This document shows, in pieces, positions 849 to 57,700 of a stretch of 64,000 bases of DNA. Origin of the DNA: Candidatus Levyibacteriota bacterium. GTDB taxonomy: Bacteria; Patescibacteriota; Microgenomatia; Levybacterales; UBA12049. Made by a program: the position numbers and the translations under genes. The notes under the pieces are model-generated. The model had not been told where the DNA came from, made no database searches, and worked only from the letters and a program-made list of their open reading frames with translations. Location of the stretch: contig JBDRBE010000004.1 in assembly GCA_043823085.1 (NCBI GenBank), positions 269,992 through 333,991 on the forward strand, given 5' to 3'. Numbering within the stretch: the first letter of the stretch is position 1; each line of letters starts with the position of its first letter.

Positions 849-979
849 ATAGCCTATATATCAAGCACTTTATCTGCCAATGATTGTTTGTCAAAATTAA
901 ACATTTGTTGCTATATTAGACCAATTCATAATTCTTAATTCCTGATTCCTGATTCAACAAAGGTTCGCGGTGGGGGGAC

Positions 980-3876: not shown

Positions 3877-4653
3877 ATGCCAGAAACAGGAATCGGAGTC
3901 TTAGAAAAGCCTAAACTACCTCACCCGACCCATGAAATTGCCGCTTATTATACAGGGAAATATAACAGCGCGGAAAAATCAGATAGTCCAGAACTCGCGA
4001 GAATCAATCTTATAAAAATGGCTTTTCCTTATCTTTTGTCATTTAGACAAAGCGACAGAGTATTAGATATAGGAGCAGGAAAACAAATTTTAGAAAGGCA
4101 GCTTAGAAATTACTTTAAAAATAAGGCTGGAAGGCCACTTCAAATACCAATAGTAACTCTTGACGTAGCAAATATTAAGTATAGAAAGTTACTGGAAAAA
4201 AAACAAAAAAATATCCACCATGTATTAGCAAGGAGTGAAAAACTCCCAATTCCAGATGAAAGTATAGCCTTAGTAATTTCAAGCATGGCCTTGGATTTAA
4301 TGCCTGACGAAGCAATTGCTGAAGTTTTTCGAGTTTTGAAACCCTGCTCTCACGCTCTGATAACTCTCCATCATCCGGCGCTGATTCCAAATGATCTTGA
4401 AGAATTATTGAAGAAACAGAATGTTAGAGCAAGCGAAAGAAGAGTTTATGAAATTTGGGACTACCTTATCAAGAATCAGAAACTTTCAAGCGATATGAAT
4501 ACAATAGCAAACAGATTAAATAAATATGGCTTCAATATAGCAACTATTAATGAAGCACGCGACGAAAAAGATACATGGTGGGAGATAGATTTAATCAAAC
4601 CAGAAAAAGCTGATGAAAATAATCTGTGGGCTCAAGAGGAGTCGAACCTCTGA
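3877..4653 (+). CDS. class I SAM-dependent methyltransferase; the 3' end reads into a tRNA-Val fragment
   Basis: Motif I VLDIGAGKQ, motif post-I/II region DESIALVISSMALDL, motif III FRVLKP. The last ~9 codons are encoded by tRNA-like sequence (tgggctcaagaggagtcgaacc). Confidence 0.6.
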   Translation: MPETGIGVLEKPKLPHPTHEIAAYYTGKYNSAEKSDSPELARINLIKMAFPYLLSFRQSDRVLDIGAGKQILERQLRNYFKNKAGRPLQIPIVTLDVANIKYRKLLEKKQKNIHHVLARSEKLPIPDESIALVISSMALDLMPDEAIAEVFRVLKPCSHALITLHHPALIPNDLEELLKKQNVRASERRVYEIWDYLIKNQKLSSDMNTIANRLNKYGFNIATINEARDEKDTWWEIDLIKPEKADENNLWAQEESNL

Positions 4654-4677
4654 CCTTTACAATGTCAATGCAACGCC
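4627..4677 (-). pseudogene. tRNA-Val 3' fragment (anticodon arm through 3' end) duplicated next to the complete tRNA-Val
   Basis: Minus-strand sequence gcgttgcattgacattgtaaaggtcagaggttcgactcctcttgagccca parallels the 3' two-thirds of the adjacent tRNA-Val with several substitutions. Confidence 0.6.
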
Positions 4678-4692
4678 CCGCCTGCCTTGCTG

Positions 4693-4766
4693 TGGAGTTG
4701 ACAGGATTCGAACCTGTGACCTTTGCAATGTCAATGCAACGCTCTAACCAACTGAGCTACAACTCC
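4693..4766 (-). tRNA. tRNA-Val(GAC)
   Basis: Minus strand ggagttgtagctcagttggttagagcgttgcattGACattgcaaaggtcacaggttcgaatcctgtcaactcca. Full cloverleaf. Confidence 0.8.
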
Positions 4767-4806: not shown

Positions 4807-4869
4807 TAAAATAACATTTAAATTTTAACAGATAAGAGTAAATCGAGCAAGATTAAGAATTTAAACTTT

Positions 4870-4921
4870 ATGAAAAAGATAATTTTAGCCTCTGCCTCTC
4901 CCCGAAGAAAAGAATTGTTAA
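4870..4921 (+). repeat. 52-bp direct repeat, copy 1 (duplicate of the maf 5' end; copy 2 at 5881..5932; 3 mismatches)
   Basis: atgaaaaagataattttagcctctgcctctccccgaagaaaagaattgttaaa versus atgaaaaagataattttagcctctgcctctcctcgaagagaagaattgttaaa. Confidence 0.85.
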
Positions 4922-5748
4922 ACTCTCTGTGGTGTTGGTGGAGGAAATACACTTTCTCCGCGGGGTGAGTTTGCAACCTTTATAACCGCATTTTTATCCA
5001 GCCGAAGTGTAAGAGCATAAGAAACCTTAGGAATGCCATCCTGAGGTCTTGGCTTATATTCAACTATCGTGGCAGATACTCCTGAAAGATTAGTTGCAAG
5101 ATCACCTACCCAACCATTCTGTTCGCTACTTTCACTAACATGATGCCATTTTTGATTCCTTCTGGCAAGGTTGATTAACAAAGGTAATGTAGCTCTATCC
5201 GTAAGCAAACCAATTCTTTTAAGCACTGGTTCTAATACCGAAGGATCTGTATGATCAAGTAAATAAAGATAATCACGAGATTGAAATGAGCCTGGGGTCT
5301 TTAGTTCATCTTGAAAAACGTCTTCTACGCCTGCAGGTTTTCCTTCCAATTCTCTTTCCACCTGAATTTTTTCAACCATCTCATGTATGTCATCTGCCAT
5401 CTTACGCAAGTTTTGACTTTTTCCACATAACATCCTTCTACGCTCATCACCTTCAGGAAATCCTTCAGCAACTTCATATAAAATATTATCTAACACTTCT
5501 ACTGGACTTTCTGCCAATTTTTCTTCTACTTCTCGTCTTGCCCTTTCTCCTGCCATCCTAGCAACATCAGCAATTACCCTACGTTGTTCTCGAGGAATAT
5601 CTAGTCCTATTGTTGGGACTATAATCTGTGCTTTTGTTCGCAACTCTGCTCTACGGGCTGAATCGCCCTTGGTATGTCGATTTATACGAGATTCCACTTG
5701 TTGGAGAGATGGTCTTGATCCTACTTCAGATCTTGGCTCACCATTCAT
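4918..5748 (-). CDS. hypothetical protein (276 aa) on a GC-enriched insertion; distant paralog of 21776..22441
   Basis: Long ORF with visibly higher GC than flanks. Shares N-terminal M-N-E-P..GSR and C-terminal YAL...RGE..PPP segments with the 221-aa protein at 21776..22441. Confidence 0.6.
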   Translation of the reverse strand: MNGEPRSEVGSRPSLQQVESRINRHTKGDSARRAELRTKAQIIVPTIGLDIPREQRRVIADVARMAGERARREVEEKLAESPVEVLDNILYEVAEGFPEGDERRRMLCGKSQNLRKMADDIHEMVEKIQVERELEGKPAGVEDVFQDELKTPGSFQSRDYLYLLDHTDPSVLEPVLKRIGLLTDRATLPLLINLARRNQKWHHVSESSEQNGWVGDLATNLSGVSATIVEYKPRPQDGIPKVSYALTLRLDKNAVIKVANSPRGESVFPPPTPQRV

Positions 5749-5880
5749 ATAGTGTCTTTGATGCTAGCATAGTTTTTTTACAAATGCAAGTGGTTTTTTC
5801 TTAAATACCTGTTAAAATACAGAGAGTAAAAATTTGTTTCCCGTACACGGGAGGGGTAAGGAAAGCTTATCCCGCATTTT

Positions 5881-6462
5881 ATGAAAAAGATAATTTTAGC
5901 CTCTGCCTCTCCTCGAAGAGAAGAATTGTTAAAAAATATCGGATTGAAATTCAGCGTTGAGCCAAGCAACTTAGATGAGAACATGACGCTAAATCTAAAA
6001 CCAGCTAAACTTGCTGAATTTTTATCATTCCAAAAAGCTAAAACCGTGGCCAAAAAATATAAAAATTCGATTATTATTGCCGCCGACACAATCGTTGTAA
6101 TCGGAAATGATATTTTAGGAAAAGCGCATACTGACAAAGAGGCAAAACAGATGTTAAATAAACTGAATGGAAAATCTCACTTGGTAATTACCGGATTTAC
6201 AATTATCGATAGCAATACAAATAAAAAAGTAACCAAATCCGAAAAAACAAAAGTATTCTTTAAAAAACTCAATGCACATGAAATAGATAATTATATAGCA
6301 ACAGGCGAACCGGTAAAAAAAGGAGGGGCGGGATCGTATTGCATTCAGGGTTTTGCCTCGATGTTTATAAAAAAAATTAAAGGAGACTATTTTAATGTTG
6401 TCGGCCTGCCGATATATTCGCTTATGGAATCTCTAAAAAAATTTGGCATCAAAGTTTTGTAA
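5881..6462 (+). CDS. maf: Maf-like nucleotide pyrophosphatase (septum formation protein Maf)
   Basis: N-terminal IILASASPRR with downstream conserved Maf/Ham1 motifs; 193 aa. Confidence 0.8.
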   Translation: MKKIILASASPRREELLKNIGLKFSVEPSNLDENMTLNLKPAKLAEFLSFQKAKTVAKKYKNSIIIAADTIVVIGNDILGKAHTDKEAKQMLNKLNGKSHLVITGFTIIDSNTNKKVTKSEKTKVFFKKLNAHEIDNYIATGEPVKKGGAGSYCIQGFASMFIKKIKGDYFNVVGLPIYSLMESLKKFGIKVL

Positions 6463-9088: not shown

Positions 9089-9251
9089 AAGATTTAAAGT
9101 TACCAAAAACGGTAAAGTTCTTTTTTCACATCAATATAAAGGACATAAAATGGTTAGTAAGTCTTCAAGGAGAAAAAGGAGGCAAAAAGAACCGGGAATC
9201 TTGAAGGGCAAATTCGCGAAAAAGATAAAAAAGATGTTGGGCAAAAGTTAA
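9060..9251 (+). CDS. rpmI: 50S ribosomal protein L35
   Basis: MRKIKKSVSKRFKVTKNGKVLF... is L35-like. ATG is in frame inside the larger ORF 8958..9251. Confidence 0.8.
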   Translation: MRKIKKSVSKRFKVTKNGKVLFSHQYKGHKMVSKSSRRKRRQKEPGILKGKFAKKIKKMLGKS

Positions 9252-9443
9252 ATTTGTCTCGCAAAGCGAGATCCTGCTATGCGGGACAAAAAAGTAAAAC
9301 AAATGTTAGGAAAAGCCTGATGGGAAAAAGAGCAAGAAAAAATATAAATTTTAGGGAGACTCATTCCGAGAGATCGGCAACAAACTCGTACCGAAATTTT
9401 GGAAAGTCTTTAAAAGAAAAGTTTAACATAAAATTCGGAAAAT

Positions 9444-10662: not shown

Positions 10663-11721
10663 ATGGAAGAAGAGTTGATTGGTATTAAAAATGCCGCGGT
10701 TTCGCTTATTTTTGACGCCAAAGATAAGAAAACACTTGAAGAAACTAAACTTCAGTTTTTAGGAAGAAGCGGAAAATTAACTTTGGCAATTAAAGAAATT
10801 ATCAAAGTTCCCCTTATTAAAAGAGCAGAAATAGGAAGACTTGCCAACGAGGTTAAACAAGCGATAGAAGACGCGCTTGTGAATCAAGAATTAAGAATTA
10901 AGAATCTAGAATCAACGAAGCGAAAAGAAAATGTTGATAAAACTGTGCCCGGCATAAAACCAAAAATAGGCCATCTTCACCCAATGACGCAAGTTTTAAA
11001 TGAGGTTATTGATATTTTTAAAGGCATTGGATTCCAAGCTGCGGACGGGCCGGAAATAGAAACGGATTACTATAACTTCACTGCCTTAAACATGCCACCA
11101 AACGCACCGTCACGCGATACGCAAGCGACTCTTTATTTGGACACCCGAAATAGCAAAGCTGAGCCAGGACAAATTTTGTTACGAACCCAAACCTCTAATA
11201 TGCAGGTTAGGGTTATGGAGAAAACTAAACCACCAATCAGAGTAATAGTTCCGGGAAAAACATACCGCGTTGATGACGTAGATGCTTCACATAGTTTTGA
11301 ATTCTGGCAACTTGAAGGATTTATGGTGGATAAAGACGTTAGAATGACAGATCTTCTTGGAACAATTGATTATGTTCTTAAGCGCTTTATGGGAAAAAAC
11401 ACAAAAACAAAATTTGCCACAACTAATTTTTCATTCGTAGAGCCGGGAATCGACACGTATATGGAATGCACTGTATGCAAAGGGAAAGCCCGCCTGCCGA
11501 ACGGGCAGGGCTGTAGTTTTTGCAAACAAAGTGGATGGAGCGAAATAATGCCCGCGGGCATGATTCACCCAAATGTTTTAAGAGCCGCAGGTTACGATAG
11601 CCAAAAAGTTTCAGGATTTGCTTTTGCAATTGGCCTTTCAAGACTGACAACTCTCCGCTACCAAATGGACGATTTAAGATTATTAACCAATCCGGATTTG
11701 AGAATCCTTGAACAATTTTAA
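10663..11721 (+). CDS. pheS: phenylalanyl-tRNA synthetase alpha subunit (with Cys4 zinc-ribbon insertion as in Firmicutes-type PheS)
   Basis: Class II motifs; FSFVEPGIDTYMECTVCKGK...CSFCKQSGWSEIMPAGMIHPNVL; C-terminal FAFAIGLSRL. Confidence 0.9.
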   Translation: MEEELIGIKNAAVSLIFDAKDKKTLEETKLQFLGRSGKLTLAIKEIIKVPLIKRAEIGRLANEVKQAIEDALVNQELRIKNLESTKRKENVDKTVPGIKPKIGHLHPMTQVLNEVIDIFKGIGFQAADGPEIETDYYNFTALNMPPNAPSRDTQATLYLDTRNSKAEPGQILLRTQTSNMQVRVMEKTKPPIRVIVPGKTYRVDDVDASHSFEFWQLEGFMVDKDVRMTDLLGTIDYVLKRFMGKNTKTKFATTNFSFVEPGIDTYMECTVCKGKARLPNGQGCSFCKQSGWSEIMPAGMIHPNVLRAAGYDSQKVSGFAFAIGLSRLTTLRYQMDDLRLLTNPDLRILEQF

Positions 11722-31935: not shown

Positions 31936-32723
31936 AACAATCTCAAAAATGGTATCAACTCAATTATTTCATGACTATAAAAAAACGCAAGTAATGTTCC
32001 TAAAACTAGAAACGGGCCAAAAGGGATTGTGTCCTTGGAAAACTTTTTCCTGCCAGCTATGACAAGCGCTAGCGCCACGAAAGCGCCGATAATAAAAGCC
32101 ATATAAAGCGCGATAATAATTTTTGGAAATCCCAAAAAAAGACCGGCCAAAAAAACATATTCAACATCGCCAAAGCCCATTCCTTTTCCTTTGGTAATCA
32201 AAAAGATAAGAAGGAAAAAGAAAAAAGCGCCAAAACCTGCCAAAAGATGAATCAGGAATAAGGAATTAAGAATTAGGGATACGTAGGCAAATGTCGCAAC
32301 AACGGCGACAAGAAGAATTCGGTCGGGGATAATCCCATATTTTAAATCGATAAAAAAAATAACGATGAGAGAGGAAACTATAAAAAGATAATAAATTAAT
32401 TCAGCAAAATATTTGATATTTGATATTTGATATTTGATATTTTCATTGGGGAAAAAAAGAAAAACTAGAACAAAAGTGATTCCAGTCGTTAACTCAACAA
32501 CCGGATAATAAAATGAAATAGGGGAGTGACAATAGCGGCAACGGCCTTTAAGAATAATAAAAGAAACAAACGGAATTAAATCATACCAAGCCAATTTTTT
32601 TTTACAGGCTTCGCAATGCGACCGGCCTTTAAATACTGACTCACCGCGGGGAAGTCTATCGATTACAACATTAAGAAAACTTCCAATACCAAGACCTAAA
32701 AAAAAGAGCAAAAATATAACCAC
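31932..32723 (-). CDS. pilD: prepilin peptidase (A24 family)
   Basis: CxxC...CxxC zinc motif (GRSHCEACKK...CRYCHSPIS), multiple TM segments, acidic catalytic residues. Contains a heptanucleotide repeat. Confidence 0.85.
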   Translation of the reverse strand: MVIFLLFFLGLGIGSFLNVVIDRLPRGESVFKGRSHCEACKKKLAWYDLIPFVSFIILKGRCRYCHSPISFYYPVVELTTGITFVLVFLFFPNENIKYQISNIKYFAELIYYLFIVSSLIVIFFIDLKYGIIPDRILLVAVVATFAYVSLILNSLFLIHLLAGFGAFFFFLLIFLITKGKGMGFGDVEYVFLAGLFLGFPKIIIALYMAFIIGAFVALALVIAGRKKFSKDTIPFGPFLVLGTLLAFFYSHEIIELIPFLRLL

Positions 32724-37414: not shown

Positions 37415-37460
37415 TCGCAAAGAGTTTCTCGGTTCTTTGTCATTCTGAACTTGTTTCAGA
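37415..37460 (+). promoter_or_regulatory. inverted repeat attctgaa-cttgt-ttcagaat in the divergent pilB/holB intergenic region
   Basis: 8-bp perfect stems read directly. Candidate operator or hairpin. Confidence 0.35.
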
Positions 37461-37484
37461 ATCTCATTAAATACTTTAAAGTCT

Positions 37485-40468: not shown

Positions 40469-40488
40469 CCTCACATCGATTACATATT

Positions 40489-41304
40489 ACCAAAGGTGGC
40501 ATACCTAATCCACCTCTAAGGTGGATTTCTATTGACACCTCTGGTTTTCGACACTAGAATAAATTATGCCCGGAAGAAATACTATTCTTGCGAACGGGGA
40601 AACATATCATATTTTTAATAGAGGAGTTGCCTCTCAACCAACATTTATAGACAAAAAAGATTATCAGAGAGTTATGGATAGTTTCTTCTATTACCAAAAC
40701 ATTACTCCTCCAATAAAGTATTCAAAATTTTTAATGATTTCCGCTAAAGAGAGAGACAATATTATAAATAATTTAAGAAAAAAGAAATTTTTCCATGCTG
40801 ATATCATTGCTTATTGTTTTATGCCTACTCATTTCCATTTATTGTTAAGACAAAATGAAGAAAATGGAATCTCAAAATTTGTAGGAAACTTCACCAACAG
40901 TTATACAAGATACTTTAATACAAAACGGGAAAGAAAAGGACCAATCTTTGAAGGCAAATTCGGTTCTGTAAGAATTGAAACAAGCGAACAACTACTTCAT
41001 GTTTCGAGATACATTCACCTTAATCCTTACTCGTCTTATCTTGTTAAAACAACTCAGGAGCTCGAGTCTTTTACCTATTCATCATTTAATGAATATATCG
41101 CAGGTAATAGTAATCTTTGTAATAAAGACTTCATTCTGGAAAATTTTAAGACCGCTAAGGAATATAAAAAATTCGTTTTTGATCAAGCAGACTACCAAAA
41201 AAAACTAAACAACATTAAACACCTTCTCTTGGAGAATTAGCGGAAATACCAAAGGTGGCATACCTAATCCACCTCTAAGGTGGATTTCTATTGACACCTC
41301 TGGT
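40489..41304 (+). mobile_element. IS200/IS605-like element: HUH (Y1) transposase gene flanked by identical 57-bp hairpin-containing ends in direct orientation
   Basis: accaaaggtggcatacctaatccacctctaaggtggatttctattgacacctctggt occurs at 40489..40545 and 41248..41304. Each copy holds the ccacc-tctaa-ggtgg hairpin. Confidence 0.7.
40566..41240 (+). CDS. IS200-like / REP-associated tyrosine (HUH Y1) transposase
   Basis: HUH motif PTHFHLLL; catalytic Tyr region LHVSRYIHLNP. Confidence 0.7.
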   Translation: MPGRNTILANGETYHIFNRGVASQPTFIDKKDYQRVMDSFFYYQNITPPIKYSKFLMISAKERDNIINNLRKKKFFHADIIAYCFMPTHFHLLLRQNEENGISKFVGNFTNSYTRYFNTKRERKGPIFEGKFGSVRIETSEQLLHVSRYIHLNPYSSYLVKTTQELESFTYSSFNEYIAGNSNLCNKDFILENFKTAKEYKKFVFDQADYQKKLNNIKHLLLEN

Positions 41305-41356: not shown

Positions 41357-43312
<1,956 letters not shown>

Positions 43313-47691: not shown

Positions 47692-47812
47692 ATGGACGAT
47701 GGAAAATAGAAAATAGATGCTGGAATTTGATGATGGAAAATAGAAAATAGAAATTCTACCCTCAAACATCCAACCTCAAAATCTATTTTCTAGCTTCCAC
47801 CATCTATCGTCA
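47692..47812 (+). repeat. complex repeat region: 19-bp direct repeat gatggaaaatagaaaatag x2 plus inverted partner ctattttctag, bracketed by gacgat / atcgtc
   Basis: Read directly in the hppA-gyrA intergenic region. Confidence 0.6.
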
Positions 47813-52623: not shown

Positions 52624-53580
52624 ATGGATAAAATTAACGGAAAGTTCAAAGGTAAAGATATTCTTTCCCTCGATCAATTCTCCCCAAAAGACATCAGTAT
52701 CCTCTTTAAATTAACTAAAAAAATGAAAAATATCGCGTATAATGCCAGACCATCAAAGGTACTCCATGGTAATATTGTTGTTCTTCTTTTTTATGAACCC
52801 TCCAGTCGTACATTTGGATCTTTTTCAGCTTCTGCTAAACAATTAGGAGGACAAACAGTTGAAATTCAAAACCCTCAAGAATTTTCATCGGTTTCAAAAG
52901 GAGAAACATTCGAAGATACCATGCGAGTTTTTGAAGCATATTGCGACGCAATCGTAATTCGCCACCCGGAAGTCGGCAGCGCAAAAAAAGCAGCCGATTT
53001 TGCAAAACGTGTTCCTGTTATTAATGCCGGTGACGGAGTAGGAGAACACCCAACGCAAACTCTTTTAGATCTCTATACTATTTATGAGAAATTTCAAAGA
53101 CTCGATAATTTAATAGGCGTTGCCGTAGGAGATATTCTTAATGGAAGAGCCGTTAAATCATTAATTCGAGGTCTTTCTTTGTTTCCGAAAAACAGGTTCT
53201 ATCTTCTTTCGCCAAATGAACTCAAACTTTCAAGAGAAGATTTTGATAATTTCAAAAAACTCAAAATAAAATTAATAGAAATAAAAAGCGAAAAAGAAAT
53301 TCCAAAAAACGCTAATTTTTGGTATTGGACAAGAACACAAAAAGAACGATTTAAAACTAAAAAGGCATACGAAAAAGTGAAAAATCGTTTTATTCTGACA
53401 AATGATCTACTAAAAAAATATGGGAATAAAAATTTGATTTTAATGCACCCATTGCCAAGAGTTGGAGAAATTGAAACAGATATTGATATTGACCCACGGG
53501 CAGTTTATTTAACTTCGCAAACAAGAAATGGAATGTATATTCGCATGGCGCTTTTAGCGCTAGTTTTAGGTAAAATATGA
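52624..53580 (+). CDS. pyrB: aspartate carbamoyltransferase catalytic subunit
   Basis: EPSSRTFGSF, HPTQ, HPLPRV motifs. Confidence 0.9.
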   Translation: MDKINGKFKGKDILSLDQFSPKDISILFKLTKKMKNIAYNARPSKVLHGNIVVLLFYEPSSRTFGSFSASAKQLGGQTVEIQNPQEFSSVSKGETFEDTMRVFEAYCDAIVIRHPEVGSAKKAADFAKRVPVINAGDGVGEHPTQTLLDLYTIYEKFQRLDNLIGVAVGDILNGRAVKSLIRGLSLFPKNRFYLLSPNELKLSREDFDNFKKLKIKLIEIKSEKEIPKNANFWYWTRTQKERFKTKKAYEKVKNRFILTNDLLKKYGNKNLILMHPLPRVGEIETDIDIDPRAVYLTSQTRNGMYIRMALLALVLGKI

Positions 53581-54632
53581 CTGGAAAATTAATTTTAGAA
53601 GATGGAACTACTCTAGAAGGCCAAAGTTTTGGAGCAGAAATTAGTGTTGCCGGCGAAGTAGTTTTTTCAACCGGCATGGTGGGATACCCCGAAAGCATTA
53701 CAGATCCCTCGTATCAAGGACAGATTTTAATCATGACCTACCCTTTAATTGGAAACTATGGCGTTCCCAAAAAATCCTATTGGGAGTCCGATAGTATAAA
53801 AGTTTCTGGACTTATAGTTTCAAGCTACATTGACACACCGTCGCATTTTCAAAACACAATGACTCTTTCCAGATGGCTTAAAAATGAAAATATTCCATCA
53901 CTTGAAATCGCAGATACCAGATTTTTAGCGCAAAAAATTAGAGAGAAGGGGACAATGCTTGGAAAAATTATTTTAAATAAAACCCTTGATTTTTACGATC
54001 CGAACAAAAGAAATCTTGTGGCTGATGTATCTTCTAAAAAAGTTGAAATTTTAGGAAATGGCAAAAAAACCATAGTTCTTATTGATTGCGGAGTTAAAAG
54101 AAATATTGTCAATAACCTTTTAAAAAAAGGGGTAAAAATTATTAAAGTCCCTTGGGACTTCGATCCCTTCAACTCCTTTTTACACCCCGGGGGTGTAAAG
54201 CTAAACTTTGATGGCATTGTCATTTCTAATGGTCCAGGCGACCCAAAGATGGCAAATAAAACTATTGAAACAATTAAAAAAGCATTGGAAAAGAAAATTC
54301 CTATTTTTGGAATTTGTCTTGGAAACCAAATTTTGGCATTGGCCGCCGGAGGAGACACATATAAACTAAAATTCGGACACAGAAGCCAAAACCAGCCTTG
54401 CGTAATGAGTGACTCCCAACGGTGTTTTATAACCGTCCAAAACCACGGTTTTGCGGTTGAAAAAATCCCTAAGGATTTTAAACCGTGGTTTATAAATGCC
54501 AACGACAAATCAAACGAAGGAATTATTCACAAAAATCTGCCTTTTATGTCGGTTCAATTCCACCCCGAAGCAACTCCAGGCCCACAAGACACAGAATGGA
54601 TATTTGATTATTTCTTGGAAAGGATACCTTAA
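53577..54632 (+). CDS. carA: carbamoyl-phosphate synthase small (glutamine amidotransferase) subunit
   Basis: CPSase small-chain N-domain plus GATase GICLGNQ, HGF. Confidence 0.9.
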   Translation: MTGKLILEDGTTLEGQSFGAEISVAGEVVFSTGMVGYPESITDPSYQGQILIMTYPLIGNYGVPKKSYWESDSIKVSGLIVSSYIDTPSHFQNTMTLSRWLKNENIPSLEIADTRFLAQKIREKGTMLGKIILNKTLDFYDPNKRNLVADVSSKKVEILGNGKKTIVLIDCGVKRNIVNNLLKKGVKIIKVPWDFDPFNSFLHPGGVKLNFDGIVISNGPGDPKMANKTIETIKKALEKKIPIFGICLGNQILALAAGGDTYKLKFGHRSQNQPCVMSDSQRCFITVQNHGFAVEKIPKDFKPWFINANDKSNEGIIHKNLPFMSVQFHPEATPGPQDTEWIFDYFLERIP

Positions 54633-54633
54633 T

Positions 54634-54717
54634 GTCATGCCGAAATCTTTAGGTGTCGTCCTGAATTTATTTCAGGACCTCGTTTTGCTCGAGATGCCGA
54701 AACAAGTTCGGCATGAC
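54634..54717 (+). repeat. 84-bp nested palindromic element (MITE/REP-like) between carA and carB
   Basis: Outer arms gtcatgccgaa / ttcggcatgac (11 bp perfect). Inner hairpin gtcctgaa-ttta-tttcaggac. Confidence 0.7.
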
Positions 54718-54731
54718 AAGGAGAAAATAAT

Positions 54732-57700
54732 ATGAAAATTAAAAAAGTACTAATTTTGGGCTCTGGAGCGTTGAAAATTGGCGAGGCGGGGGAGTTTGAC
54801 TACTCCGGTTCTCAAGCCATTAAAGCCCTTAAAGAGGAAGGGATAAAAACAGTTTTAGTTAATCCAAACATTGCCACTATTCAAACCTCAAAATTTTTAG
54901 CAGACACTGTTTACTTTCTTCCCATTGATGATTTTTTTGTCGAAAAAATAATTAAAAAAGAAAAGCCAGACGGGATCCTTCTCTCTTTTGGCGGCCAAAC
55001 AGCTCTCAATTGCGGAATAAATCTCTACAAAAAAGGGGTTCTTAAAAAGAATAATGTACAGATACTTGGCACTCCGATCTCGGCAATTCTTTTAACCGAA
55101 GATCGCAATAAATTCGCCAAACATCTTTTAAAAATAGGGGTTCCGATTCCAAAAAGCCAGACAGCAAATTCAGCAAAACAGGTAAAAATAATCGCTAAAG
55201 AAATTGGTTTTCCGGTGATGGTAAGAGCCGGTTTTACTCTAGGAGGACAAGGATCGGGAATTGCACAAAACGAGAAGGAATTAAATAAAATAGCGGAAGC
55301 GGCTTTTTCTTTTGCCCCGCAGGTTTTAATTGAAAAATATTTACATCACTACAAAGAAATTGAATACGAAGTTGTCCGCGACAAATTTGATAATTGTATT
55401 ACAGTCTGCAATATGGAAAACATGGACCCTATGGGAATTCACACCGGCGAATCTATTGTGGTTGCTCCTAGCCAAACTTTAAATAATTTTGAATATCAGG
55501 CTTTGCGAAACGCAGCCATAAAAATTGTCCGAAGTCTAAAAATCGTCGGCGAATGCAATGTCCAATTTGCATTAAACCCAAACCCTAATCGCAATGTCAT
55601 CCTGAGGAGCAAAGCGACGAAGGATCTCACCGACGTTCGAGATTCTTCGACTTCGCCTCAGAATGACAATAATGATATTGAATACTACGTTATCGAGGTC
55701 AACGCCCGGCTTTCCCGAAGTTCAGCTCTGGCATCAAAAGCAACCGGATATCCGCTTGCCTATGTCGCAGCAAAATTGGCACTCGAAAAAAATCTTACTT
55801 CTATCAAAAATAAAGTTACCAGCATTACCCAATCCTGTTTTGAACCGGCTCTTGATTATATTGTTGTCAAAATTCCCCGCTGGGATATAGAAAAATTCAA
55901 AGGCGCAGAAGAACAAATTGGAAGCAGTATGAAATCAGTCGGAGAAGTGATGGGAATTGGAAGGACTTTTGAAGAAACGTATCAAAAAGCCATCCGCATG
56001 CTTGATTTAGATTTTGAGGGCGCGGTAAATGAAAAAATAATAAAAAATGAAAAGTCATTAACTTATCAATTAAAAACACCAACCCCAAAACGCATTTTCG
56101 CAATTGCCAAAGCGATTTCGCAAAACTTTTCCATTAAAAGAATCAATCAATTAACTGGAATTGACCCGTGGTTTTTATATCATATTAAAAGCATCGTTGA
56201 TCAAGAAAAAAACCTCCGGAATAAAAAAATAAATGATTTATCCAAAGAAAAATTATTAGAATTAAAGAGATTAGGATTTTCCGACAAACGCATCGGGCAG
56301 CTTCTGGGAGTCTTGGGACTTGAAATTAGAAAAATTAGGAAGAAATGGAAAATTTTGCCAAACGTTTTTCAAATTGACACTCTGGCAGGCGAATTTCCCG
56401 CTAAAACCAATTATCTTTACACAACATACGGTAATAATCATGATGATGTTAAACCGGCCGGAAAAAGCGGAGTGATAGTTTTGGGCTCAGGCCCTTACAG
56501 AATTGGTTCGTCTGTTGAATTTGACTGGACAAGTGTTAATACTGTTTTGGCGCTAAAAGAACATAAAAAACAATCGATAATAATAAACTGCAATCCGGAA
56601 ACCGTTTCCACAGACTATGATATTTCCGACCGGCTTTATTTTGAAGAATTATCATTTGAAAGAATCGCAGATATTTATGAATTTGAAAATCCGTTGGGCG
56701 TTATTATTTCTGTGGGCGGACAAACGCCAAACAACAGAGCAAAATCGCTAAAAAGTTATGGCTTTCATATTCTTGGGACAGACCCCGCAAATATTGACAG
56801 GGCAGAGGATAGGAATAAATTTTCCAAACTTCTTGACCATCTTAAAATTTCACAGCCTCCCTGGAACAAATTTTCTAACATTAAAGATGCTTTAAGTTTT
56901 TGCGAAAAAGTAGGCTACCCTGTATTAATTCGTCCTTCTTATGTACTATCTGGAACAAGTATGAATATCTGTTATGACCAAAAAGAATTTCTTCATTATC
57001 TTAAAAAAGCTTCTTACATTTCCAAAGAATATCCCGTAACAGTTTCCAAATTTATTAAAGATGCAAAGGAAATTGAGTATGACGCGGTCGCCCAAAAAGG
57101 AAAAATCAAGACCTCGGTGATTTCCGAACACATAGAAAATGCCGGAATTCATTCGGGAGACGCAACAATTGTACTCCCGCCGCAAAAAATTTATCTTGAA
57201 ACGCAAAGAAAAATCCATAACGTTGCCAATAAATTAGCAGAGTCTCTTGTTATTTCCGGCCCTTTCAACATACAATTTTTAGCCAAAGATAATGATATTT
57301 CTGTAATCGAAATTAATCTTCGCTCATCGCGGACTTTTCCTTTTATTTCCAAGGTTACCGGCGTTGATTTTATCAAACTCTCTGTAGATTCTTTTTTTGG
57401 CAAACATATTCCGAAGATTTTCACCAATTCATTAAAATTTACAGCAGTAAAAGTTGCCCAGTTTTCTTTTGCAAGACTTACCGGCGCAGATCCGATAATT
57501 CGTGTCGAAATGGCATCAACCGGCGAGGTGGCTTGTTTTGGAGAAAATGTTGAGGAGGCGTTTTTAAAAGGAGAACTTGCTGTTGGTGGAAAAATTCCAA
57601 AAATCGGTGTCTTCCTAAGTTTAGGGGGAGAAGAAAATAAAATTAAATTTTTAGAAAACTTTCCTCATTTGAAATTTTTGAATCTTCCGATTTTTGCAAC

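Follow-up and report, generated by a model that had tools for sequence, protein, structure and literature searches.

What fills the junction of carA and carB in a metagenome-assembled Candidatus Levyibacteriota genome whose closest relatives leave no spacer there at all? The locus lies in a stretch of 64,000 nucleotides (nt) of contig JBDRBE010000004.1 (assembly GCA_043823085.1, positions 269,992 to 333,991; here called the window, GC content 36.8%), in which carA and carB follow pyrB and are separated by 99 nt that hold an 84-bp symmetric element. The element is most likely a small cluster of CGTC-tagged repetitive extragenic palindromic (REP) sequences of family CGTC-2, namely, a head-to-head heterodimer and a truncated unit, inserted between carA and carB.

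Two and a half palindromes after the carA stop codon

A first-pass annotation, made from the letters of the window alone, had described the element as a miniature inverted-repeat transposable element (MITE) or REP-like sequence built of nested hairpins and starting 2 nt beyond the carA stop. The 84-bp symmetry is real as described, apart from its start. The perfect terminal inverted repeats (GTCATGCCGAA at 54634-54644 and TTCGGCATGAC at 54707-54717), given as 11 bp, are indeed complementary, and their full extent is 12 nt (54633-54644 and 54707-54718), so that the element begins directly on the base following the carA TAA. From that base the sequence reads T GTCATGCCGAA ATCTTTAGG TGTC GTCCTGAA TTTAT TTCAGGAC CTC GTTTTGCTC and continues with GAG ATGCCGAA ACAAG TTCGGCAT GAC A, the final A opening the AAGGAG of carB. 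The inner hairpin of the annotation, GTCCTGAA-TTTAT-TTCAGGAC, is present at 54658-54678, with an 8-bp stem and a 5-nt loop. An additional perfect hairpin that had been overlooked, ATGCCGAA-ACAAG-TTCGGCAT, occupies 54694-54714, and its 3' arm consists of bases of the right terminal repeat. Moreover, ATGCCGAAA occurs as a direct repeat, at both 54637 and 54694.

Both hairpins follow one formula, (T/C)GTC, 8-bp stem, 5-nt loop, complementary arm, and CTC, which gives a unit of 27/28 nt. The 84-bp element is a half unit, a linker, a full unit in the sense orientation, a 9-nt spacer, and a full unit in the antisense orientation, a description that accounts for it better than nested hairpins do. The tag-side end of the antisense unit (54691-54718) is the right arm of the terminal repeat, and the 12-bp terminal inverted repeat exists because the half unit shares its stem subtype, ATGCCGAA, with this inverted distal unit. 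In the sense unit (54654-54681), G-C replaces the usual A-T as the first stem pair, a change compensated on both sides; folded alone, its hairpin has a predicted energy of -12.0 kcal/mol.

Likely membership in family CGTC-2

The survey of Di Nocera, De Gregorio & Rocco (2013, BMC Genomics 14:522, PMC3733652) recognizes two superfamilies of REPs, one tagged GTAG and the other CGTC. Repeats of the latter kind end in CGTC, or in many cases TGTC; their stems measure 8 bp (families 1 and 2) or 9 bp, with complementary A/T in the first two positions “almost invariably,” their loops 4 nt in family 1 and 5 nt in families 2 to 4, and their short unpaired tails have the consensus CCA (PMC3733652). Dimers mostly have the tags outside, that is, head to head, and heterodimers predominate in CGTC-2 and CGTC-3 (PMC3733652).

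In the window, TGTC precedes all three full units, one of which lies apart from the element (see below), as well as the half unit. The stem arms ATGCCGAA and ATTCTGAA begin with AT, and in GTCCTGAA/TTCAGGAC the first pair is changed on both sides. The loop is CTTGT twice and TTTAT once, the same two types that dominate in foreign units left unconstrained by the search pattern, and the dimer at 54654-54718 has its tags outside and stems that differ. The combination of an 8-bp stem and a 5-nt loop points to family CGTC-2. A further match comes from Sulfurovum, for which the supplementary table lists the CGTC-2 intragenic peptide RHSELVSGS (PMC3733652): CGTCATTCTGAACTTGTTTCAGGATCT, or CGT CAT TCT GAA CTT GTT TCA GGA TCT, would encode this peptide, and the back-translated DNA matches the present unit.

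Foreign copies from many biomes

That the palindrome is a repeated, REP-like one was borne out both in the window and in foreign contigs. A metagenome scan with the pattern GTCATNCNGAACTKGTTTCNGNATCTC, in which four stem positions were left free, found exact units in at least 120 contigs from many biomes, with GC contents of 23-61%. These positions make up two stem pairs, each of which is Watson-Crick in 126 of 130 copies; one occurs as CG, GC, TA, or AT and the other as TA or CG, a complementarity that implies strong selection for the hairpin. In about half of the metagenome copies, an inverted partner lies 1-30 nt downstream, with GAG...GAC flanks and the loops ACAAG or ATAAA, features that the search pattern did not constrain. 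Nearly all head-to-head foreign dimers (47/49) are heterodimers, and the same stem pairings recur among them. In the foreign dimers, GTC is preceded by T in 28 of 47 and by C in 13 (T or C in 41/47), and the tails of foreign units outside the scan pattern are CTC (36), CTG (18), CTA (10), CTT (9), and CCA (5); CCA-tailed units occur in the same contigs as CTC- and CTN-tailed ones.

The annotation had suggested one superfamily occupying intergenic and coding sites alike, and the metagenome copies follow that distribution: 64 are intergenic (41 between unidirectional, 11 between convergent, and 12 between divergent genes) and 29 lie inside open reading frames (ORFs), 16 of them in ORFs of more than 300 amino acids (aa). 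Both orientations relative to transcription are found, and in unidirectional contexts 15 of 48 clusters lie at most 20 nt from the upstream stop codon. No recurrent neighboring gene emerged from all-against-all clustering of 1,120 ORFs from 120 metagenome contigs; the ORF clusters near copies belong to abundant housekeeping families (ABC transporters, histidine kinases, oxidoreductases, and the like), and each covers at most 6 contigs.

The half unit is likewise not peculiar to this locus. Of 117 metagenome copies, 11 have such a half unit upstream, at a distance of about 10 nt from the full unit (modal spacing in foreign copies, 10 nt); control windows placed 200 nt away gave none. The layout is also found on the megaplasmids of Treponema saccharophilum, which carry units, including an intergenic cluster of five units plus a half unit (pTS1). 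Foreign half units mostly repeat the stem of the unit next to them, whereas the one in the window repeats the stem of the distal inverted unit. The layout might have arisen by template switching at the hairpin loop during replication.

Nearly the same 27-nt hairpin is present in an ultra-small genome of the candidate phyla radiation (CPR), in Treponema plasmids, in metagenome contigs of widely different GC content, and in viral contigs: IMG/VR holds 33 viral or proviral contigs (L155-L187) with exact CGTC-2 units, and a search of a GenBank phage collection gave no unit match. The viral-contig copies could mark a route of horizontal spread or could be host DNA at prophage borders. The survey names N. 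aromaticivorans as a CGTC-2 host (PMC3733652). One Novosphingobium plasmid and one Sphingobium plasmid each contain a partial match (25/25 nt). We take the N. aromaticivorans of the survey to be Novosphingobium aromaticivorans. The partial plasmid matches and the back-translated peptide suggest that the spread probably extends to alpha- and epsilonproteobacteria.

Regular tandem arrays of units occur in three metagenome contigs (L035, L137, and L077). One has a 91-nt period and alternating plus and minus units (L035, 2713-3012) and resembles a BIME-2 (bacterial interspersed mosaic element); a second has a 46-nt period; and in a third a TTTCAGAATCTC satellite grows out of the 3' arm of a unit.

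A further unit between pilB and holB and probable relatives inside carB and purH

A covariance model was built from 89 distinct foreign units and run unfiltered over the window. It recovers both full units of the element and a third short unit (Table 1) and gives a weak match to the half unit (54633-54649, plus strand; 8.1 bits, E = 8.1). The third unit lies in the divergent pilB/holB intergenic region (flanking genes by Pfam), where the annotation had pointed to a related hairpin, which is present at 37439-37465. A whole-window repeat search pairs 54691-54722 with 37434-37465 as an 84% inverted match. The two units have identical tags, loops, and tails, and their stems (ATTCTGAA/TTCAGAAT versus ATGCCGAA/TTCGGCAT) differ at two pairs, each altered on both sides, i.e., by compensatory changes.

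The relative proposed inside carB also exists and is more distant. Both of its units score about 19 bits (55595-55628, plus strand, 18.9; 55639-55668, minus strand, 19.1; E ~0.01) in the expected head-to-head orientation, and the dimer encodes a 26-aa in-frame segment (the RNVILRSKATKDLTDVRDSSTSPQNDNN region) that is absent from carB of relatives. A comparable dimer in purH, with one match (17747-17776, minus strand; 10.6 bits, E = 1.8), replaces or extends about 12-18 aa of PurH (HAERSEASRDSSLAAQND). These carB and purH copies share a long form, GTCATYCTGAG...GAAGRATCTC. The superfamily link is solid for the 37.4-kb hairpin and reasonable, if weaker, for the carB element. The 64 kb analyzed, part of a contig spanning at least 431 kb, contain three full short units, one half unit, and four long-form units.

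Table 1. Coordinates of the carA-carB element, its flanking genes, and related units in the window
Feature	Position	Strand	Remarks
pyrB	52624-53580		Pfam-confirmed
carA	53577-54632		Pfam CPSase_sm_chain + GATase over 53577-54629
carA stop codon TAA	54630-54632	+	next base is the element start
Truncated (half) CGTC-2 unit, tag TGTC + 5' stem arm ATGCCGAA	54633-54644	+	left arm of the 12-bp terminal inverted repeat
9-nt linker ATCTTTAGG, half unit to next tag	54645-54653	+	10 nt to GTC, as in the foreign mode
Full unit, sense: TGTC / GTCCTGAA / TTTAT / TTCAGGAC / CTC	54654-54681	+	covariance model 39.9 bits, E = 4e-8
9-nt spacer GTTTTGCTC between head-to-head units	54682-54690	+	foreign dimer spacers typically 1-30 nt
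Full unit, antisense: TGTC / ATGCCGAA / CTTGT / TTCGGCAT / CTC	54691-54718	-	covariance model 47.4 bits, E = 4.5e-10
carB ribosome-binding site (RBS) AAGGAG (54718-54723), 8-nt spacer, ATG (54732-54734)	54718-54734	+	abuts the element
carB	54732-58007		Pfam-confirmed
Single short unit: TGTC / ATTCTGAA / CTTGT / TTCAGAAT / CTC	37438-37465	+	48.4 bits, E = 2.3e-10
Long-form head-to-head dimer in frame in carB	55595-55668	+	ends GTCATCCTGAGG...GAAGGATCTC and CCTCAGAATGAC
Long-form head-to-head dimer in frame in purH (AICARFT/IMPCHase)	17720-17776	-	encodes ...HAERSEASRDSSLAAQND...

A 79-aa ORF in another frame (54496-54735) crosses the 3' end of carA and the entire element, and its TGA overlaps the carB ATG; it is probably spurious, of the type that such repeats create in annotations. 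A Logan contig from an independent assembly of the same organism (L144, SRR27458547_3880) ends 3 nt past the element, which fits repeat-induced assembly breakage.

A junction that is closed in the closest relatives

The nearest CarA relatives are only 73-76% identical, and in the three loci at that level (L145, L148, and L149), carA and carB overlap by 4 nt, ATGA (CTATGA). The element is thus neither confined to one place nor a conserved spacer: its symmetry recurs, and the overlap in the closest relatives identifies it as a derived insertion into an ancestral, translationally coupled overlap. The comparison comprises loci retrieved through protein look-ups (L145-L149) and 23 further genome loci, of which 18 junctions were displayed. 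In 16 of these 18, the carA-carB gap is 0-30 nt (from protein alignments) or a longer spacer, without units; one 83-nt spacer (L004) likewise has no unit.

A single locus of the 23 (L008, 65% CarA identity) has CGTC-2 units, and these lie exactly at the carA/carB junction (GTCATGCCGAACTGGTTTCGGCATCTC TAGATCCTGAAACAAGTTCAGGATGAC). On the minus strand, the window dimer reads GTCATGCCGAACTTGTTTCGGCATCTC-9 nt-GAGGTCCTGAAATAAATTCAGGACGAC. The L008 pair is of the same type as that of the window (ATGCCGAA + RTCCTGAA), and its orientation relative to carA-carB is the opposite. The shared junction may be explained by independent insertion of the same dimer species or by an old insertion followed by rearrangement, in which case the half unit could be a remnant of an L008-like first unit. 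A simple inversion linking the two arrangements was rejected, as it would give mismatched chimeric hairpins, none of which is seen.

In two other loci (L146, 4148-4547, and L147, 1078-1498), a small PF05635 gene (23S rRNA intervening sequence protein/bAvd-like) is inserted at the carA-carB junction and bounded by AT-rich inverted repeats of the GAATTAAGAATTAAGAAT type. Repeats of this type occur three times in the window (924-956, 10880-10912, and 32248-32280). The PF05635 cassette looks like a second kind of small cassette targeting gene junctions.

Predicted fold and expected effect on expression

For the RNA of the region, the folding energy is -41.3 kcal/mol, whereas shuffled sequences give -23.0 ± 3.4 (z = -5.5; none of 200 shuffles equal). 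In the predicted fold, the half unit pairs with the distal 3' arm in an outer stem (probability ~1.0) that encloses the inner hairpin; this structure has -39.3 kcal/mol, compared with -32.3 when pairing of the half unit is forbidden. The carB RBS and start are mostly unpaired in the predicted ensemble, with probabilities of being unpaired of 0.35-0.91 at 54719-54734. At 54718 the value is 0.13, as this A pairs with T54633 in the outermost pair of the 12-bp stem. We considered whether a ribosome terminating at carA would unmask the carB RBS; folding does not support it: in free mRNA the RBS is for the most part open from the outset, and its pairing increases when the 5' arm is occluded.

A pre-formed dimer would have been the moving unit, inserted at the carA/carB boundary, and an enzyme supplied in trans would read the hairpin and the (T/C)GTC tag on single-stranded DNA. 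Once in place, the element, which contains no promoter-like site and a single weak terminator-like match, would be cotranscribed within a pyrB-carA-carB message and fold as a compact, very stable stem-loop. Such a fold would take 84 nt out of the way and set the carA stop codon and the carB AAGGAG at the base of one helix. Overlap-based translational coupling would be lost, and carB initiation would occur at the separate, strong Shine-Dalgarno sequence AAGGAG. The hairpins may block 3' exonucleases and so shield the upstream mRNA segment, as for Escherichia coli REPs. As has also been described for E. coli REPs, they might slow termination at the upstream stop codon, which is conceivable here because the structure starts 1 nt after the carA stop; the basis for this effect is reportedly work of Liang, Rudd, and Deutscher from 2015, which appears as reference 30 of PMC6006769. 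The net effect of the element on the cell is probably near-neutral.

Alternative readings

Several points weigh against a CGTC-2 cluster inserted as a mobile dimer. No mobilizing enzyme was found for the units, either among the neighbors in the 120 metagenome contigs or in the Y1 transposase gene of the window discussed below. All that is said here on transposition and on effects at the RNA level is inferred. The 3-nt unpaired tail is CTC (CTN abroad), not the CCA consensus of CGTC repeats. The copy number given is that of the 64 kb, and the three short units all differ in their stems and so give no sign of a recent burst. Finally, the junction shared with L008 could mean inheritance and selection, hence function, rather than independent insertion.

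A further reading we regard as possible though distinctly less probable: CGTC-2 units would be copied or maintained by a conserved host function or a phage-borne recombinase that recognizes tag and hairpin, the half-unit layout, found here and in about 9% of foreign copies, would be a footprint of the copying, and the half unit at this locus could have been retained for coupling. Template switching at the hairpin loop would be an example of the copying step, and the long-range stem could hold the carA stop beside the carB start, restoring coupling after the insertion.

An operon-specific cis-regulatory RNA (pyrimidine/arginine) is unlikely. It would act as an attenuator, as an intrinsic terminator, or as a switch setting the carA:carB ratio through TTCGGCAT (54707-54714), which does have two mutually exclusive partners, 54637-54644 and 54694-54701; the inner hairpin is followed by CUCGUUUUG and was flagged as terminator-like, and a related element stands at the same junction in L008. 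However, the long-range fold is favored over the local one by about 7 kcal/mol and has a probability of ~1. As to the terminator role floated in the annotation, the flagged match is the only one inside the element, is weak, and is embedded in the larger fold, and the terminator-like count of 3 is unremarkable beside 1.9 ± 1.5 in shuffles. Termination between the two genes is also unlikely to be favored because CarA and CarB form one enzyme. An Rfam scan of 54300-55100 matched no family, including PyrR, to the element at either gathering score or permissive E-values; the best score inside it was freshwater-2 (54660-54734; 16 bits against a 50-bit threshold) and the best in the scanned interval RT-8, in carA (23.4 bits against 87). 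The closest relatives manage without any carA/carB spacer, and elsewhere the same units stand on either strand in settings unrelated to this one, among them divergent promoter regions and the interior of genes.

Equally improbable is a canonical REPIN/RAYT system, in which the units would be cognate substrates of the RAYT (REP-associated tyrosine transposase) kind of enzyme, the only HUH enzyme seen nearby. RAYTs are known to mobilize REP doublets (PMC3116915 and PMC3337134), and the window does encode a 224-aa Y1/HUH (IS200-like, RAYT-like) transposase at 40566-41240, 14 kb upstream of the element. Pfam matches it to Y1_Tnp (E = 3.9e-9), and among NCBIfam models “REP-associated tyrosine transposase” scores best, with 46 bits (cutoff, 80); the DNA, read by hand, encodes the HFH motif and RYIHLNP, and a PDB sequence search with the protein gave no match. 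On either side of the gene, however, stands one copy of a perfect 58-nt direct repeat (40488-40545 and 41247-41304) with the hairpin AATCCACCT-CTA-AGGTGGATT (CCACCT-CTA-AGGTGG), which is unrelated to the units. Among more than 4,600 homologs, the named ones in the 120 listed are all from CPR bacteria (Levyibacteriota, Microgenomates, Gottesmanbacteria, and Shapirobacteria). The homologs that were examined, from four other CPR genomes, have hairpins of the same type on their flanks, and the 78 kb around these homologs contain no CGTC-2 unit. The Y1 enzyme thus comes with a cognate hairpin of its own and shows no link to the GTCAT units. The units also lack the GTAG (GTRG) tag, and their dimers are heterodimers rather than hairpin-forming homodimers. 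CGTC repeats have no dedicated transposase and never flank Y1 transposase genes, according to PMC3733652, and the unlinked Y1 gene agrees with this published absence.

Directly downstream of the Y1 gene is a 650-aa ORF (41360-43312), probably gyrB; a Y1 homolog in L150 sits upstream of gyrB. That locus has three Y1 copies in 20 kb, one of them at the same holB/gyrB position.

The MITE interpretation, a nonautonomous deletion derivative of a DDE-type insertion sequence mobilized via 11-12-bp terminal inverted repeats and leaving a target-site duplication, is very improbable. The perfect 12-bp repeat, the small size, and the multiple related copies had made it attractive, but it was rejected for want of a target-site duplication: the flanks TAA| and |AGGAG contain no direct repeat, and a flanking direct repeat is lacking altogether in 36 of 43 foreign dimers and measures 1-2 nt in the remainder. 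Furthermore, the “terminal repeat” is built of family units that are themselves palindromes and is a by-product of a truncated third unit standing opposite an inverted full unit; single units occur alone (37438-37465); and no recurrent transposase accompanies the 120 foreign copies. Chance palindromes in an AT-rich spacer can be set aside: short hairpins are common in AT-rich DNA, and the window has 82 perfect hairpin configurations with stems of ≥7 bp (nested stem/loop parses of one hairpin counted separately), but a covariance model trained on foreign sequences yields E-values of 1e-8 to 1e-10, the fold lies far below the shuffles, and identical tags, loops, and tails recur in hundreds of foreign copies.

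Other repeats of the window

A 40-nt double-hairpin repeat, TTTGTCTCGC-AAA-GCGAGATCCTGC-TAT-GCGGGACAAA, occurs in inverted orientation at 9250-9289 and 24251-24290, upstream of rplT and at the nusB/rnc junction; its ends are GTC...GAC, and it possibly represents a further REP family. After a tRNA gene (1794-1844) and upstream of nusB (23803-23853) lie the two copies of a 51-nt inverted repeat, with 78% complementarity. Between two long genes, 47692-47807 form an imperfect palindrome rich in ATGGAAAATAGAA, with 54-nt arms that are 70% complementary and an 8-nt gap. A 56-nt direct repeat (4867-4922 and 5878-5933, 96% identical) spans the starts of two ORFs that lie about 1 kb from each other. 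At 4624-4742, two tRNA-like segments that resemble each other stand side by side; Rfam called only one of them as a tRNA (4693-4766).

Implications and comparison with known systems

As the window shows, a streamlined, gene-dense CPR genome has kept CGTC-type REPs, some of them in frame within essential biosynthetic genes. The ATGA overlap of the relatives and the 99-nt REP-filled spacer found here form a before/after pair that can be used for studying how a translationally coupled operon tolerates a palindromic insertion. A specialist will find the result unsurprising; it supplies useful material on what mobilizes CGTC-type REPs, as the cross-phylum copies, the strict heterodimer pairing, and the truncated-unit layout are inputs for phylogenetic profiling of the mobilizer. 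In annotation work, spurious short ORFs, unusual insertions in proteins, and breaks in assemblies find an explanation in these units.

CGTC-2 REPs are a described kind of element, and the new part is the host lineage. Literature searches by unit or encoded-peptide sequence returned only primers and unrelated matches, and a search for REPs together with CPR or Patescibacteria gave no paper with both among the matches listed. The survey names Proteobacteria, Chlorobi, Bacteroidetes, Spirochaetes, and Thermotogae as CGTC hosts, places Neisseria dRS3 and Rickettsia RPE-4 and RPE-6 in the superfamily, and describes intragenic inserts as mostly dimers that encode 20-30 aa (PMC3733652). Like the present units, CGTC-2 REPs occur as singles, dimers, and clusters, mostly intergenic with some in-frame dimers of 20-30 aa, and without a flanking transposase. 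In contrast, the host here, Levyibacteriota of the CPR, is outside the five listed phyla; one unit has a G-C first pair; the long-form carB and purH units do not fit the description of 8-9-bp stems and 4-5-nt loops; and the recurrent layout of half unit, 10 nt, and full unit is undescribed in the available text of PMC3733652.

MITEs such as Correia/NEMIS, RUP, and ERIC resemble the element in being small, repeated, cotranscribed, and foldable as RNA, with inverted-repeat ends. They differ in that the element has neither a target-site duplication nor a parent insertion sequence and that its building block is a 27-nt palindrome, not transposon ends. Rickettsia RPEs insert in frame in protein genes, as do the long-form dimers in carB and purH; larger RPE-1-type elements measure 100-150 bp. 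Neisseria dRS3 repeats are 20-bp inverted repeats, ATTCCC-N8-GGGAAT, that flank variable spacers (PMC1797815, which also covers NIME). They belong to CGTC-1, with a 4-nt loop and a GC-rich stem, unlike the CGTC-2 units, and serve as filamentous prophage integration sites via a phage recombinase, whereas no such phage or recombinase is seen here.

The REP, BIME, and REPIN sequences of E. coli and Pseudomonas, which have RAYT transposases, are, like the element, tagged short palindromes in inverted doublets with variable spacers, located near gene 3' ends, cotranscribed, folded as RNA hairpins, and arranged in places in alternating arrays (as in L035). Unlike GTAG REPs, the units carry the tag GTC, pair as heterodimers rather than as REPIN homodimers, and have no Y1 gene flanking them here; and whereas GTAG REPs are mostly lineage-specific, the CGTC-2 unit sequence is nearly identical across distant taxa.

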